Shown piece after piece: positions 36,968 to 44,620 of a stretch of DNA of 64,000 bases. Below the pieces are notes generated by a model. That model ran no database searches. It was not told where the DNA came from and was given only the letters and a program-made list of their open reading frames with translations. Position 1 is the first letter of the stretch. Every line of letters begins with the position of its first letter. The translations under genes and the position numbers were made by a program. The DNA is from a bacterium. Its GTDB lineage: Bacteria; UBA4055. The stretch spans positions 10,756 to 74,755 of the forward strand of contig JAKQBN010000030.1 of NCBI GenBank assembly GCA_029559475.1, given 5' to 3'.

Positions 36968-38209
36968 CTAATCTTCAAATATGATCTGCGGTTTACCTTT
37001 ATTCTGTTCGACCCTGATAATTTCAAGAATTTTATCATACGAGTACGATCCTTTCAGCTTCGGATTGAACCTGCATCGTACCGAAACTTCATTTTTCTCA
37101 ACTTCCTTATCGCCGACGACAAGTATCAGAGGAATTTTCCGCAATTCCGCATTCCTGATCCGGCTGCTCAGAGAATCATTATTGTCTGAAAGTTCTACAC
37201 GCATATCTTCCTCTTTCAGCTTGCGCACCAGTTTTTTGCAGTGATCCGAACGGTTACTGTTTATATCGATAACCATTACCTGCATCGGAGACAGCCAGAA
37301 CGGCAGACTGCCCGAATAGAATTCCAGCAGTACGGCTATGAACCTTTCAATACTTCCGAACAAAGCACGGTGCACAAGATACGGAACATGGAATTTTCCG
37401 TCAGAACCGCGGTATTCCATCTTGAATTTACCGGGCAGGTTGAAATCGAACTGAACAGTGCTGCACTGCCATTCATTTCCCGCGAAATCGATTATCTTGA
37501 TATCTATTTTAGGCCCGTAAAAAGCACCGCCGCCTTCATCGATCTCATATTCCAGTCCGACTTCATTTACAGCTTTTTTCAAATGTTCAACCGCCATTTC
37601 CCAGTCTGAATCACTGCCTATAGCTTTCTCGGCCGGTTTAGTAGCTATATAAGCCTTGAACTTATTCAGCCCGAAAGCCCTGAGAACATAAAGGCTGAAC
37701 TTGAGAGCACGGAGTATCTCGCCGTAGATCTGATCCTTACTGCAGATAATATGCGCGTCATCCTGAACAAAACCTCTCACCCTTTTCAGCCCGTGCAGAG
37801 CACCGGAGAACTCATACCGGTAAACAGTGCCGAATTCCGCATACCTGACCGGCAGTTCCTGATATGACCTCTGCCTGTTCTTAAAGATCATCAGATGAAA
37901 AGGACAATTCATCGGCTTAAGATAATATTCTTCCTCATCTATCTTTATCGGAGCATACATATTTTCCTTAAAGAAATCCAGATGCCCTGAAGTTTTCCAC
38001 AAACCTGCCTTACCGATATGAGGAGAATAAACCCATTCATAGCCGTTTTGCAAATGAGCCTTCTGACTGAACCTTTCAAGCTCGTACCTTATGACACTTC
38101 CGTTCGGGTGAAAAGACACAAGACCCGCTCCGACTTCCTCTGAAAAACTATACAGATCAAGCTCTTTTCCAAGTTTGCGATGATCCCTGTTTTCGATAAT
38201 ATTCTTCAT
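36968..38209 (-). CDS. thrS: threonine--tRNA ligase paralog lacking N-terminal TGS/editing domains (catalytic class II core + anticodon-binding domain only)
   Basis: The product begins RDHRKLGKELDLY, which corresponds to about residue 240 of canonical ThrRS. Class II motifs and a C-terminal anticodon-binding domain are present. Upstream stop codons occur in all frames, so the 413-aa length is genuine. Confidence 0.75.
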   Translation of the reverse strand: MKNIIENRDHRKLGKELDLYSFSEEVGAGLVSFHPNGSVIRYELERFSQKAHLQNGYEWVYSPHIGKAGLWKTSGHLDFFKENMYAPIKIDEEEYYLKPMNCPFHLMIFKNRQRSYQELPVRYAEFGTVYRYEFSGALHGLKRVRGFVQDDAHIICSKDQIYGEILRALKFSLYVLRAFGLNKFKAYIATKPAEKAIGSDSDWEMAVEHLKKAVNEVGLEYEIDEGGGAFYGPKIDIKIIDFAGNEWQCSTVQFDFNLPGKFKMEYRGSDGKFHVPYLVHRALFGSIERFIAVLLEFYSGSLPFWLSPMQVMVIDINSNRSDHCKKLVRKLKEEDMRVELSDNNDSLSSRIRNAELRKIPLILVVGDKEVEKNEVSVRCRFNPKLKGSYSYDKILEIIRVEQNKGKPQIIFED

Positions 38210-40187: not shown

Positions 40188-40590
40188 TTATTTGTGATTG
40201 AACTTAGTAAAATATTCGTCAATTTCTGGCCTTAATTCAATTCCTACTCGCTCAAAGATGTCCAACAAATCATTATAAGTACCTTCGCCACCTAAAAAAT
40301 CCCAGAATTCATGAGCTACTTTTAATTCATTCTCAAGATCAAGCATACCAGCCATAGTCCATCTGGTATACGGTTTCGGCTCATAAGGATTATATGGAAT
40401 TGCAATTAAAGTATTTACATTGGCTTGAGGATTATCAGCAAGTACGCAAGCAGTCCATTGAAGTAATGTTCTTTTAAATTCAATAAATCCGCCTTTATTA
40501 GGCTTTGCAGTTTTTATATCGAATAAAAATAATTCTCCTGAAATAGTGACATTTGTCCCTTCGCGAAGTGTTATATTACAAATATAAGGC
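40188..40590 (-). pseudogene. start-less ORF remnant (about 133 codons, no ATG/GTG/TTG), possible fragment of a PD-(D/E)XK-like nuclease
   Basis: I translated this by hand: ...TLREGTNVTISGELFLFDIKTAKPNKGGFIEFKRTLLQW...EFWDFLGGEGTYNDLLDIFERVGIELRPEIDEYFTKFNHK*. Stops occur in all frames upstream, and it abuts the divergent start of the HTH-repeat gene. Confidence 0.35.
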
Positions 40591-40606
40591 TAAACTGGAG
40601 GGGAAA

Positions 40607-41452
40607 ATGACAAAAAAGGAAACAGAGCTTCAAAGATACATAGATAAGACAAGCGAGGGAGAGTTTCTGTACGAGTTGGCAAATTCGTATGAGCTCTCCC
40701 CGATTTTAAGTAAAAACATCCTTCAAACAGCCAAAACCTGCCTTCTCCAAAGCAAAGTACTTCAAGCCGGACAGATAGAATATCACTGCGTAAGTATCGA
40801 TGAAAAAAGCGGGAAGCAGATGCTTGATATGAGCAAGATAAAAGTTATTCTGACTCTAAAGGACGAAATCGAAGATATAACTACTTTAAGCGTGGAAGGC
40901 AGAAGCGTATATCGTCAGAATAAAATTCAAAGGATGACTGATGAGGCTATAGCGCAAAACGGCATATTAAGTCAGGAAGATCTTAGTATGCTGCTGAATG
41001 TAAGCGTGAGAACGATCAAGCGTGATATTCGTAGAATAAAGATCAGGAATATTGAAGTGATCACCCGCGGGACCTATCACAATATAGGAAGGGGACAAAC
41101 GCACAAGACACGAATAATCAGCCTATTTCTTGAAGGATGCACATATACTGACATCAAGTGGAAAACGCATCACAGCACAGGATCAATCAAGAGGTATCTT
41201 GATAGCTTCGGAAAAGTTCTGATGTGTGTGGAGTATGGTATTAAGGACAAGTCAGAGATACGATCTGTAACAAATCTGTCTGAATATCTGATATGCCAGT
41301 ACCTGGATATACTCAAATCTGCAGAAAAAAGTAAAGTGAAATCAGAAAACTTGGATATGCTTAAACAGCAACTGTCATATAGATATGGTTCAAAAAAAAC
41401 GATCGTTTACGATGGTCTGAGAGCGGAAGCTACGACAGGAGGCTGGAAATGA
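40607..41452 (+). CDS. hypothetical protein with three tandem helix-turn-helix-like modules (paralog 1)
   Basis: The ATG at 40607 is preferred because GGAGGGGAAA lies upstream. Repeated modules include LSQEDLSMLLNVSVRTIKRDI, YTDIKWKTHHSTGSIKRYL and SEIRSVTNLSEYLICQYL. Confidence 0.5.
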   Translation: MTKKETELQRYIDKTSEGEFLYELANSYELSPILSKNILQTAKTCLLQSKVLQAGQIEYHCVSIDEKSGKQMLDMSKIKVILTLKDEIEDITTLSVEGRSVYRQNKIQRMTDEAIAQNGILSQEDLSMLLNVSVRTIKRDIRRIKIRNIEVITRGTYHNIGRGQTHKTRIISLFLEGCTYTDIKWKTHHSTGSIKRYLDSFGKVLMCVEYGIKDKSEIRSVTNLSEYLICQYLDILKSAEKSKVKSENLDMLKQQLSYRYGSKKTIVYDGLRAEATTGGWK

Positions 41453-42246
41453 ATCTGAACAATATACGGGACAGATATGAAAGCATAAACAAACGGAACT
41501 TCAGATCAGCTTTGATAAGCCTTTTAGAAAACGATTATAAAATTTTAGGATCAAGAAAAATCTTATCCATGCTTGCAGAGGACATTGAACAGCTTTATAA
41601 CGAATTTAATCCTAAAATATCTGAAGTCGGCTTTGGTGAGATCGTATTCAGGACAACAAAAGATGATGGTCAAAGACAAAGTTACGGTAAGAAGACAGAA
41701 GATTATGCGTCAACGACAGTGATACTGCCATTGATAACAAAAGATGATGTTGAGCGCAGAATTTATTTCCGCAAAGGCGACAGAAACAGTAATTACGAGC
41801 ACAGAGAGTCAAGGGACATAGAAACTATGGTAAGGCTAATCAAAAGCGCAAAGGAGCAAGGCGGATTACTCACCGGAGCGGAAGTAAGTGTTCTGATGAA
41901 CAGAAGCCTCAGTACCATCAGAAAATATCTTGATGCTTACAGGAATAAAACAGGTGAAATACTTCCGCTGAAAGGATATGTGCTTGATCAAGGCAGCCTG
42001 CCTACTCATAAAGGCATAATCGTATCGCTTTATGAGCAGGGAATATCTCCGTCCGATATTGTTTTAAAAACTTCACACAGCCAAAGCGCGGTTGATCGCT
42101 ACATCGGGCAATACGATCAGATTAAGAAGCTCATTAAAAAAGGTTTAAATGAGCGTGAAATTAAAGATATTACGAGAAGGTCATTGAAAATCATCAGAGA
42201 ATATGTTAAATTGTATAAACAATTAAATCCGGAAGTGAAAAAATGA
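41449..42246 (+). CDS. hypothetical protein with three tandem helix-turn-helix-like modules (paralog 2)
   Basis: It aligns by eye with paralog 1 over about 130 residues (GxLxxxExSxLxNxSxxTIxxxL...THKxxIxSL...DIxxKTxHSxxxxxRYx). It is coupled to paralog 1 by an ATGA overlap. Confidence 0.5.
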   Translation: MNLNNIRDRYESINKRNFRSALISLLENDYKILGSRKILSMLAEDIEQLYNEFNPKISEVGFGEIVFRTTKDDGQRQSYGKKTEDYASTTVILPLITKDDVERRIYFRKGDRNSNYEHRESRDIETMVRLIKSAKEQGGLLTGAEVSVLMNRSLSTIRKYLDAYRNKTGEILPLKGYVLDQGSLPTHKGIIVSLYEQGISPSDIVLKTSHSQSAVDRYIGQYDQIKKLIKKGLNEREIKDITRRSLKIIREYVKLYKQLNPEVKK

Positions 42247-42249
42247 AGA

Positions 42250-42729
42250 TTATTTACTACCGCGCTTCGCTTGCTTACTTCTCAGGGGACAAATGTCACT
42301 AATGTAAAAAGATTCAAGCATGACATCTACTTTTGTAGCCTTAACAACTTTCATCTTACCTTTCTGGCAAACTTTTCTTATCGCATTGATTTCTTCGGGT
42401 TTACAAGGTTTTACATTTGCTGCGGTTAAATCATCCATAATATCTTGAATTACTCTTTGAGCATCTTCACTGATATTAACACCAGCTTTAGCTTGTGCCG
42501 TTGCGTTTTTGAAATTTTTACTGGCTAATGCGAGTGCGACAGGTTCAAATATGCTGGTACCAAAATTTGTATTCAATGATTGAATAAAAGAGAACAATGC
42601 GATCCTGTCACTGCCTAGTAGTCTTGTATGGAACGGCATTGAAGCTGGTTCTGGATTATAATTTTTGAATTTATGCCTCAAGCTATTTCTTAAGACATCT
42701 TCTATTTGTTTTATTTGATTACTATCCAT
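42250..42729 (-). CDS. hypothetical 159-aa protein co-transcribed downstream of the DNA methyltransferase (candidate restriction/specificity partner)
   Basis: It starts 33 nt after the MTase stop on the same strand. I did not recognise any motif family. Confidence 0.35.
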   Translation of the reverse strand: MDSNQIKQIEDVLRNSLRHKFKNYNPEPASMPFHTRLLGSDRIALFSFIQSLNTNFGTSIFEPVALALASKNFKNATAQAKAGVNISEDAQRVIQDIMDDLTAANVKPCKPEEINAIRKVCQKGKMKVVKATKVDVMLESFYISDICPLRSKQAKRGSK

Positions 42730-42762
42730 TTCAAGTTATCTCAAGTAAGTTAGGGTTTAGAA

Positions 42763-44388
42763 TTACTTCCTCTTCAAGTGAAATATTATTTCCGAGTAGG
42801 CACTTTTATCTCTTTCGGTACGGTTGAGCACTGGTCTTTTGAACTGATTTACAATTTTCATATCTGCATTATCTGCGATAGTTGGATATAAATTATATTT
42901 ATCGTTTGCTACGAGAAACACATCATAATCCTTTACAAAGTACTTTTTTACATTGTTCAAAACATCGCTTATGCCTTTAACATAGCTATCTTTAGCTTCT
43001 CGGCCTTGACCTTTGAAAAGAGGTCCGATTTCAAGCTCGTCATTCCTGTCGAATCCGAAAAGATCATAAGCGTAGGCATGCTGTTCATGATAATCAATTA
43101 AACCTACATAAGGAGGTGATGAAAATATCCCGTTTATTTTCTTTTTTGAAACAAGTTTTGAAAATTCAGGATCCAATTTTTTTAAACCGTTGACTATATC
43201 AATCGTTCTGCTGTCACCGGTCAGGCAAGTATGAAATGTTTCTTTTTTTAGCTTTGAGTAATCTTCTAAGCGCTTTACAGTGTCTTTAGCGTATCTTTCC
43301 CACCAGCTCAAAATTGAAAATAAAGGTTTGCATATTTTACCGTGTTTTGAACAGTAATATGTCGTCGTTACAGGCTCGAAAAGAGTTGCAAGATCTGCAT
43401 GAGTAGTTGCTCTGCAACTTCTGATAGTCCTGCTTAATATTACGCTTACAATTTCTTTCGTATCCGAATTAGCTATTTTCTTTATCTCATTGTGCACTAT
43501 TTCAATTTCTTCTCTGATGTGCTCAGAATACCATTTGTCGAGAAATGAGCCTTCTTTGCTTTGTCGCTGCTTGATTTTATACTCAGCTACTAATTTTTTG
43601 AAGATCGGTAAGAACTCTTTTTCTTTTTCAGCTCCATAAGTATCTTCATCTACCATTTTACGCTTAATATTGTAACGGTATTCTGGAGACGGAAAATGTT
43701 TTAGATTAAAATCATATAGCTCGTGTAATAATTTTTCTTCAAATTCTACAGTATGATTATCTTTCAAGAATAATTTTAGTTTTTTAGAAATTTCGCTTAT
43801 AACTTTTAGCACTTCATCATAGTTATAGTCTTTAACTTTACATTTAGCTATCATAGAATTGAATGCTGAAACATCAATCCCTATTGAATGGATTCCAAGT
43901 TCGCAAGCTTGTACCATTGTAGTGCCGCTGCCTGAAAAAGGATCGAGTACTATATCACCTTGTTTGAAGTAAATCTCTTTTTTGAAATCATCAACATGCG
44001 CGTCTAAAAAATACTCAACCAGTTGAGGTATAAATTTTCCTTTGTAGGGATGTAATCTGTGAACATGTTTTGTTGTGTCTGATTCTTTATACTGATCAAA
44101 TGACAATGCCCAATTAAGATCATTTCCAAGTTCTTTTTTCCATGTATCTACTCTGGATTCCTTAAAACCCGCATAATATTCGGCAAGCTCTTCTTTAACA
44201 ACCATAGTCGATCCATTTTCGCCAATTTTTTTTATTCTACCGTACTGGACTAAATAAGATATATTTGAAGGTGTTACATTTTTCCCTAGTAAATCTGAAG
44301 CCCAATCGCTTGCTTCCTTTATTGACAATAATTCTGACATTTTCTTTACCTGCTTCATGTGCAATTTATCTGTCTTTTCAATCTTCAT
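42763..44388 (-). CDS. DNA methyltransferase (N6-adenine or N4-cytosine type; FxGSGTT motif I and SPPY motif IV) with N-terminal HTH-like segment
   Basis: The HPYKGKFxPQLVEYFL...GDIVLDPFSGSGTTMVQACELG motif lies at about aa 120-165, and IFSSPPYVGLIDY at about aa 420. The N-terminal 70 aa are HTH-like. Confidence 0.8.
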   Translation of the reverse strand: MKIEKTDKLHMKQVKKMSELLSIKEASDWASDLLGKNVTPSNISYLVQYGRIKKIGENGSTMVVKEELAEYYAGFKESRVDTWKKELGNDLNWALSFDQYKESDTTKHVHRLHPYKGKFIPQLVEYFLDAHVDDFKKEIYFKQGDIVLDPFSGSGTTMVQACELGIHSIGIDVSAFNSMIAKCKVKDYNYDEVLKVISEISKKLKLFLKDNHTVEFEEKLLHELYDFNLKHFPSPEYRYNIKRKMVDEDTYGAEKEKEFLPIFKKLVAEYKIKQRQSKEGSFLDKWYSEHIREEIEIVHNEIKKIANSDTKEIVSVILSRTIRSCRATTHADLATLFEPVTTTYYCSKHGKICKPLFSILSWWERYAKDTVKRLEDYSKLKKETFHTCLTGDSRTIDIVNGLKKLDPEFSKLVSKKKINGIFSSPPYVGLIDYHEQHAYAYDLFGFDRNDELEIGPLFKGQGREAKDSYVKGISDVLNNVKKYFVKDYDVFLVANDKYNLYPTIADNADMKIVNQFKRPVLNRTERDKSAYSEIIFHLKRK

Positions 44389-44437: not shown

Positions 44438-44620
44438 TTATTTATTTTCAAGTATTGTTTCATTTATAGAAGATTCTATAGCATCAAACCAATCTATTTT
44501 TTCTGCAATCACATCTTTTATCTTTAAAATTTCAGACGAATTTAATTTTCTTCCCAATACTTCTTCAGATACATTCTGAACATCTTCATCTGTTAATTCA
44601 TAAACAACATTCTTTCTCAT
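44438..44620 (-). CDS. hypothetical small acidic protein (60 aa)
   Basis: The ORF lies between ispF and the MTase gene on the same strand. No motif was recognised. Confidence 0.25.
   Translation of the reverse strand: MRKNVVYELTDEDVQNVSEEVLGRKLNSSEILKIKDVIAEKIDWFDAIESSINETILENK

Follow-up and report, generated by a model that had tools for sequence, protein, structure and literature searches.

The window examined here is a stretch of 64,000 nucleotides from a bacterium of the GTDB lineage UBA4055 (GCA_029559475.1, contig JAKQBN010000030.1, positions 10,756 to 74,755 of the forward strand). On its minus strand, 33 nt apart as the initial annotation described, lie two open reading frames (ORFs), one for a DNA amino-methyltransferase (42763..44388; 541 aa) and one of 159 aa (42250..42729). 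The shorter of these, which had been taken for a small orphan partner protein, is with a probability of about 0.93 the 5′ 54% of the gene for a 258-aa endonuclease of the TdeIII family, that is, part of a common Type II module whose endonuclease has been knocked out by a mobile element. It is equally probable that the region as a whole is a horizontally acquired TdeIII-family Type II module, in which an alpha-type methyltransferase is followed 33 nt downstream by its endonuclease. The interrupting DNA is a 1763-bp element resembling an insertion sequence (IS; 40543..42305, plus strand), delimited by its inverted repeats, by excision in silico and by comparison with about 100 other copies. Its two genes both encode DUF1670 proteins and, to judge from the other copies, it ordinarily inserts at the ends of genes that specify a type IX secretion sorting domain.

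The divided endonuclease gene

Residues 3-140 of the 159-aa ORF align to positions 2-140 of the 242-position Pfam family PF09520 (Type II restriction endonuclease, TdeIII; E 2.6e-43). Its first 141 codons (42307..42729, minus strand) are native endonuclease sequence, and its last 18 are foreign codons from antisense element DNA, into which the frame reads as far as 42250. The remainder of the gene, comprising residues 142-258 and the stop codon (translation SGELFLFDIKTAKPN...), lies on the same strand at 40188..40541, separated from the 5′ fragment by 1.76 kb. It too matches PF09520, and within it a 55-aa ORF (40188..40355, minus strand), 1.9 kb from the 159-aa ORF, covers positions 205-242 of the family (E 1.6e-14). 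The endonuclease gene is broken by 1763 bp after codon 141, with the element standing in the opposite orientation to it. When 40543..42305 is excised in silico together with one copy of a flanking AA, the junction reads GAATCTTTTTCAGGAGAA and a single open frame results, which matches positions 2-242 of PF09520 (E 1.6e-90; 303 bits against a cut-off of 27.2) and encodes a 258-aa protein (...LESFSGELFLFD...) that aligns without gaps to homologues of 260 aa. There are 5783 relatives of this protein at E<=1e-10, the best of which are 260 aa long, are 75-81% identical to it over 97-100% of its length and carry the name 'TdeIII family type II restriction endonuclease'. The lookup gene tables label PF09520 'HinfI', whereas the Pfam library used says 'RE_TdeIII'; this is a discrepancy of labelling and carries no biological signal.

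In an alignment of ten endonuclease sequences the window protein, being one of the ten, by definition retains every invariant column, including D135, D152 and K154. Because all of these columns are kept and no decay is seen, the insertion appears to be recent. The invariant D135 is encoded on the 5′ fragment and the invariant D152-I-K154 on the 3′ fragment, and the combination of D135 with D152-x-K154 suggests a PD-(D/E)XK site. Since these presumed catalytic residues fall on different fragments, neither fragment would be expected to be active, and the split endonuclease should be inactive. The methyltransferase, its own gene intact, is left as a de facto orphan.

The notion of the 159-aa protein as a true small companion to the methyltransferase, whether a minimal endonuclease, a specificity subunit or a controller, is scarcely credible. 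Its ORF is indeed uninterrupted, on the same strand and only 33 nt downstream, yet it spans only positions 2-140 of the 242 in PF09520 while its homologues are uniformly ~260 aa, its final 18 residues are antisense element DNA, the missing C-terminal part continues in frame beyond the insertion, and the invariant D-x-K sits on that other fragment. A restriction endonuclease had been among the options offered by the initial annotation, and the PF09520 match shows this to have been the right direction; the others (a minimal enzyme of PvuII size, a specificity subunit or an unrelated gene) do not survive the recognition of a truncated 258-aa enzyme. Equally, the description of the ORF as an orphan without a nuclease signature has to be given up in view of the match of residues 3-140 to PF09520 and the presence of the rest of the gene at 40188..40541. 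The 'orphan partner' is gone as a lead, being the broken gene of a common family and not a candidate minimal nuclease.

The suspicion that the two ORFs form a restriction-modification pair is borne out by other genomes, where TdeIII endonuclease genes adjoin those of homologous methyltransferases. At locus L028, a 528-aa methyltransferase, 68% identical to that of the window, has the endonuclease directly after it, and at L029 (methyltransferase 80% identical), L113 and L114 a single gene intervenes between the modification (M) and restriction (R) genes. An adjacent cognate methyltransferase is thus found in the window and the pairing is conserved elsewhere; a lack of such conservation had been proposed as grounds for abandoning the pair, and the opposite is observed, with full-length endonucleases kept beside homologous methyltransferases. 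The intervening gene encodes a 612-aa protein with an AIPR (abortive-infection) domain at L113:6599-8437 and L114:1805-3643, and a 712-aa protein with a faint TniB match at L029:1872-4010. The M-R module seemingly accepts inserts of defence genes.

TdeIII itself, from Treponema denticola (R.TdeIII, TDE0911), is a Type II enzyme that has been studied by experiment (PMC12878829). The window module resembles the TdeIII system in the full PF09520 match of its endonuclease, whose homologues are named as TdeIII family, and in having an N6_N4-type methyltransferase immediately upstream, as in related loci. It differs in that its endonuclease gene is split and presumably dead, the likeness being drawn through the PF09520 family and the names of the homologues. 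In other respects the module is unremarkable within its large family, and inactivation of restriction genes by IS elements is common. The window conforms to that pattern in that an inverted-repeat element with a short duplication interrupts R and leaves M intact; it departs from it in that the element is of no recognised IS family and the target is an unusual one for it.

The inserted element and its usual target

The left terminal inverted repeat of the element, TAGTGACATTTGTCCC (40544..40559, plus strand), is complementary at 16 of 16 positions to the right repeat, GGGACAAATGTCACTA (42286..42301), which is followed by a 4-nt tail, ATGT (42302..42305). A 14-bp palindrome lies within each end. 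The 14-nt core of the repeat has no other mismatch-free occurrence in the window, where 0.24 matches with <=2 mismatches would be expected by chance. Comparison of the junctions places an AA on either side of the element (40541..40542 and 42306..42307) as a 2-bp target duplication. The same arrangement recurs in other copies: a 6-nt WAWWGT tail follows the repeat core in 66/66 right ends examined, the first two bases are the same at both junctions in 49 of 50 non-redundant copies, and AA is the pair duplicated in 65/66 right copies. From these boundaries, the circle junction of the window element is predicted to read ...GTCACTAATGT(AA)ATAGTGAC.... A scan for promoters and terminators gave nothing beyond shuffled expectation.

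A model with duplication of TA (element 40546..42299, endonuclease of 261 aa) was considered and rejected. It leaves a 3-aa insertion at the junction relative to all nine homologues, it would place TA beside the left repeat but AA beside the right one in 30 of the 66 right ends, and unoccupied type IX gene ends assign the 6-nt tail to the element.

The element has the generic marks of an insertion sequence, namely a 16-bp perfect repeat, a 2-bp duplication, near-identical copies at unrelated sites and contigs of unit length. Protein B, the product of its second gene, has 1057 relatives at E<=1e-5, and the contigs that carry the top 120 (75-97% identical) are for the most part 1.7-2.5 kb long, which matches the length of the element and is usual for a repeat at which assemblies break. 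Unit-length contigs are also found for protein B representatives at 30-44% identity. Scans gave 24 genome loci, in Ignavibacteria, Bacteroidota, Cloacimonadota, Delongbacteria and a few others from binned genomes, and 80 metagenome loci were recovered in addition. A single 2.17-Mb Ignavibacteriales contig carries two copies at a distance of 92 kb from each other; they share 99.7% identity over 1759 bp, and their flanks are unrelated. Variants of the end repeats co-vary between the two ends (ACGACA/ACGACA in 17 copies, GTGCCA/GTGCCA in 15 and AGGACA/AGGACA in 4). Judged from these copies, the element is mobile and multicopy, and no relative of protein B was found in plasmid and phage collections. 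The window copy has 93% DNA identity to those at L003, L030 and L031. Because the closest relatives of its protein B (97%) carry the name Candidatus Delongbacteria in NCBI, this is the likely host.

The left flank of the element in other loci is almost always ...AAR AAR ATG NTN CTN NTN AAA TA, with the repeat next. When translated, 60 of 75 left junctions give (K/R)M-x-hydrophobic-x-K-stop, and in most of the remainder the contig does not extend far enough for a decision. Upstream lie long, mutually unrelated ORFs (e.g., 1033, 941, 914 and 595 aa) that have in common a C-terminal tail of the form ...NPFNP...SGVYFY...KKMxLxK; each of the seven tails tested scores above the cut-off for Por_Secre_tail (PF18962; 32.8-49.3 bits, cut-off 27), and the element is co-oriented with the target gene in all cases. 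The junction stop codon is TAG in 41 copies and TAA in 32, its last base doubling as the first base of the repeat. To the right of the repeat the WAWWGT tail is followed by AAR TAR. The left and right Lys codons of the 50 non-redundant copies are AAA/AAA in 36, AAA/AAG in 11, AGA/AGG in one, AAG/AAA in one and aberrant in one; since the two can differ in their third base, only the first two bases are duplicated and the third base on the left derives from the element. Unoccupied type IX gene ends from the same loci read AAR TAR and then unrelated sequence, so that the WAWWGT tail is borne by the element and the AAR TAR on its right represents the original Lys codon and stop. The canonical target can be written ...AAR AAR ATG NTN CTN NTN AA|R TAR (...AAGAAAATGATTCTGATGAAATAA), which is the last ~24 bp of the gene, and on the strength of these junctions the usual target of the element is the end of genes encoding the type IX C-terminal sorting domain.

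Such similarity of left flanks, which are alike over ~24 nt in most copies and identical over 20 nt in the Delongbacteria copies L003 and L031, might also be seen if the mobile unit were larger, with the element carrying a piece of a type IX gene end rather than targeting it. This is improbable, however, because the upstream ORFs are unrelated and their frames run unbroken into the flank, the two copies on the same contig lose similarity ~20 nt outside the repeat, unoccupied type IX ends carry the same sequence without the element, and the left flank in the window is native endonuclease coding sequence.

The left flanks of the copies at L084, L097, L010 and L033 are unlike type IX gene ends, and these may be off-target or rearranged copies. 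Upstream of the Delongbacteria copy at L031 (L031:2060-2100), a 691-aa type IX cargo gene ends early at ...AVLSK*, an extra T in an A-run leaving the canonical KMLLLK* out of frame; this could be a host frameshift or a sequencing error.

The DUF1670 proteins and a proposed mechanism

Gene A (40607..41452, plus strand) encodes 281 aa from an ATG, the ORF having been listed from a TTG at 40553, and gene B (41449..42246, plus strand) encodes 265 aa and overlaps gene A through ATGA. A Shine-Dalgarno sequence, GGAGG, stands ahead of both, and the two genes are translationally coupled. Their products match DUF1670 (PF07900; E 2.3e-48 and 4e-46, respectively), a family originally defined on archaeal proteins, and are paralogous to one another (25% identity, E 4e-16). 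Among 58 complete copies of the element, 56 have a homologue of gene A; the ATGA overlap is found in 54 copies. Besides DUF1670, Pfam finds weak helix-turn-helix (HTH) matches alone in the two proteins; they matched nothing in NCBIfam, including its IS-family transposase models for genome annotation, and a PHROGs search gave nothing useful. Each has an N-terminal ~125 aa without a recognised fold, followed by three HTH units, and the AlphaFold model of a DUF1670 protein (pLDDT 68) has a long N-terminal helix, a beta-hairpin, further helices and three HTH units. When compared with the PDB by Foldseek, the best E was 0.15 and the top matches were mostly HTH DNA-binding proteins, including paired domains and the transposon-end-binding domain of SETMAR, while a 75-sequence family profile matched HTH repeats alone among PDB sequences. 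None of the recognised transposase classes (DDE, DEDD, HUH, Ser or Tyr) was found in the element by Pfam, NCBIfam, PHROGs, PDB sequence search or Foldseek.

Across 748 representatives of 50%-identity clusters of the family, H187 is invariant, and G63, L93, R129, P173, G176, D180, G182, K188, H210, Y218 and Y252 are at least 90% conserved. Sets of residues resembling those of tyrosine recombinases or DDE enzymes can be picked out (R129, K188, H210, R217 and Y252; D100, D/E145 and D180), but they were discarded as candidates: the models place them in HTH helices and linkers and contain neither an RNase-H-like nor a recombinase fold. Longer members of the family consist of DUF1670 modules in tandem, two to four in number, or read through into other genes, with no catalytic fusion among them. 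Two DUF1670 'fusions', P0387 and P0363, resemble read-throughs of genes interrupted by related elements, the partners being a UvrD-helicase fragment joined to DUF1670 and DUF1670 joined to a DnaG-type CHC2 zinc finger. They are possible further off-target insertions.

The arrangement of the ends and target allows a mechanism to be proposed. Proteins A and B, probably as a hetero-oligomer, would bind the ~24-bp target as well as the 14-bp palindromes in the two ends of the element, and integration would proceed with a 2-bp stagger or crossover and in a fixed orientation. At its usual target the element enters after the second base of the last Lys codon, duplicating AA, and its first four bases, A-TA-R, rebuild the Lys codon and the stop, such that the host gene is undamaged. 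Expression of the element may come from read-through of the upstream gene. The inference from sequence is that the two proteins bind the element's ends as well as its target and either carry out or recruit the breakage and joining of DNA; the chances that they themselves cut and join it are about even.

Tentatively, and at slightly short of even odds, the DUF1670 pair can be viewed as a previously unrecognised site-specific transposase or recombinase made up of two paralogous multi-HTH proteins dissimilar to DDE, DEDD, HUH, serine or tyrosine enzymes, the founder of a new IS family, widespread in Ignavibacteria, Bacteroidota, Cloacimonadota and Delongbacteria, that uses type IX gene ends as a multi-copy safe harbour in which the stop codon is rebuilt. 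A doubtful but conceivable alternative is that the element is non-autonomous, in which case A and B would be DNA-binding regulators or target selectors, and cutting and joining would fall to a host recombinase or to a master element with the same ends. The failure of Pfam, NCBIfam, PHROGs, the PDB sequence search and Foldseek to find a catalytic domain fits such an arrangement, as does the fact that all recognisable parts of the proteins are HTH units and that the longer family members are mere tandem DUF1670 modules. It is harder to reconcile with how constant the layout of two genes, their ATGA overlap and the element length are among complete copies (56 of 58) from several phyla, or with the finding that representatives at 30-44% identity are still on unit-length contigs. 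Moreover, no transposase gene is present in any flank examined, and a set of polar residues is near-invariant family-wide (H187, K188, H210, Y218, Y252, R129 and D180).

Known site-specific elements offer partial parallels to the DUF1670 element. Tn7, when directed by TnsD to attTn7 downstream of glmS, also recognises a conserved coding 3′ end and lands harmlessly in a fixed orientation. However, Tn7 has one site per genome, inserts ~25 bp past the stop codon, makes a 5-bp duplication and requires five Tns proteins with a DDE transposase, whereas the target of the window element recurs in many genes of a genome, and the element inserts within the final codon, duplicates 2 bp and encodes two small HTH proteins. 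The IS630/Tc1-mariner group resembles it in the 2-bp duplication, the short inverted repeats, the weak HTH_23/HTH_29 matches and the faint paired-domain and SETMAR fold matches. That group is defined by TA duplication and a DD(E/D) domain, neither of which is found here: the window element duplicates AA, no DDE domain was detected in it, and it has two paralogous genes in place of one transposase and a ~24-bp target in place of TA. Finally, IS1397/ISKpn1 (at REP/BIME sequences) and IS110/IS621 are likewise site-specific for a short sequence repeated through the genome. Their targets are non-coding palindromes and their transposases are of the DDE or DEDD type, IS621 using a bridge RNA, whereas the target of the window element is repeated through coding constraint on a secretion signal and a DDE/DEDD enzyme is not encoded.

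The window itself contains no canonical target site (maximum 13.8 bits). The site occupied in the endonuclease gene scores 5.3 bits against the target matrix and ranks 17 of 124,400 window positions, against a canonical median of 28.8 bits, and of the 22 bases that adjoin the insertion on its left, 18, by a count made by eye, equal those of the L013 site. The most satisfactory reading of the insertion is an off-target event at an antisense-strand site that weakly resembles the target, and one that was tolerated because the loss of R does no harm so long as M is kept.

Several points weigh against this account. At 5.3 bits, the resemblance of the site in the restriction gene to the target is weak. 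Exact look-ups of protein B and of the methyltransferase gave solely the interrupted locus, with no empty-site allele among them, and contigs with a 97%-identical methyltransferase (P0391) stop ~120 nt short of the junction and belong to a different neighbourhood. Because every contig with the exact methyltransferase carries the insertion, the precise boundaries of the element are probable ones drawn from parsimony and from the other copies, the alternatives being duplication of AA or of TA, the latter with a 261-aa protein. Confidence in the structural models is low to medium (pLDDT 68 and 61).

The literature searched yielded nothing on DUF1670 or PF07900 and nothing relevant on insertion sequences at type IX gene ends. 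The element matches no recognised transposase family in the databases compared; ISfinder lay outside the comparison, and a prior description may exist. Compact, abundant and with DUF1670 genes alone, it provides a route to the function of DUF1670 and possibly to a new DNA-rearranging enzyme. The use of coding constraint on a secretion signal as a repeated and harmless landing pad is a targeting strategy of which no description was found, and an inserter specific for ~24 bp and for orientation that works in Bacteroidota-like organisms would serve as a genetic tool. There is also a warning here for annotation, in that a short ORF next to a DUF1670 pair may be a piece of an interrupted gene.

The methyltransferase and the history of the module

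The identification of the longer ORF as a DNA amino-methyltransferase stands, with the motifs at the places originally given. Pfam N6_N4_Mtase covers aa 93-175 (44.3 bits against a cut-off of 26.7), a segment that includes HPYKGK at aa 113-118 and the AdoMet-binding motif I, DPFSGSGTT, at aa 149-157 (43918..43944, minus strand). The catalytic motif IV, SPPY, follows at aa 424-427 (43108..43119, minus strand), and both DPFSGSGTT and SPPY are invariant across 39 homologues. The motif I segment is the sole part of the protein that can be aligned to solved N4-cytosine and N6-adenine methyltransferases. In the Malone classification, the order motif I, target-recognition region and motif IV of the form (D/N/S)PP(Y/F) denotes an alpha-class exocyclic amino methyltransferase. 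This is the order in the window protein, where DPFSGSGTT comes first and is separated by the target-recognition region, ~265 residues from motif to motif, from SPPY, in agreement with the alpha-like permutation proposed at the outset. The S-P-P-Y form is typical of N4-cytosine methyltransferases and, by analogy, suggests that the window enzyme methylates cytosine at N4. The methyltransferase is presumed to be active. Its database relatives number >7999 and are typically of 525 aa; because these, like the methyltransferases that adjoin related endonucleases, begin at the window's Met17 (MSELLSIKEAS...), the true start is probably this codon, at 44340, giving a protein of 525 aa.

The first ~70 residues of the methyltransferase matched no Pfam family even at E<=10. 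Residues 1-60 are modelled by AlphaFold as beta-alpha-alpha-beta-beta-alpha, which is winged-helix-like, with a pLDDT of 63-80 in a low-confidence model (overall pLDDT 61). A winged-helix/HTH domain is plausible for this N-terminal region of ~60 aa (44161..44340, minus strand), which is conserved in homologues, and autoregulation by means of it, as suggested in the initial annotation, is speculation. Some homologues of 624-632 aa (P0435, P0445, P0447 and P0494) have an XRE-family HTH (PF01381/PF12844) fused ahead of the N-terminal region, an arrangement that resembles a fused controller protein.

Pairs of M and R genes like those of TdeIII have been reported to move horizontally, with an IS as neighbour (PMC3467074). 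The window module has moved, because a 97%-identical methyltransferase (P0391) sits in a quite different neighbourhood elsewhere (L110, L111). This, together with the G+C content of the module (34.0%, the window as a whole having 40.1%), is consistent with a mobile restriction-modification island. At L110:107-2662 and L111:120-2675, the 97%-identical methyltransferase lies directly downstream of a second restriction-modification system, composed of a methyltransferase, an HTH_26 controller-like gene and an MvaI_BcnI endonuclease, and ispF does not adjoin it.

The recognition site of TdeIII is GGNCC, and the specificity of the window module would be the same. Among short palindromes in the window, depletion is strongest for GGCC (68 found where 118 were expected) and GGNCC; the latter, with 33 occurrences where 67 were expected (z -4.2), ranks second, which is circumstantial evidence. 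GATC is over-represented in the window (498 observed against 398 expected, z +5).

Between ispF and the methyltransferase gene of the window lies a 60-aa ORF (44438..44620, minus strand) that is called as a gene in public contigs. It has no match in Pfam, NCBIfam or PHROGs, and the methyltransferase homologues in L028 and L110 are not preceded by it. Elsewhere in the window, the ORF at 36968..38209 (minus strand) encodes a threonyl-tRNA synthetase of only 413 aa, with catalytic and anticodon-binding domains; if its listed start is real, the protein is without the usual N-terminal TGS and editing region.

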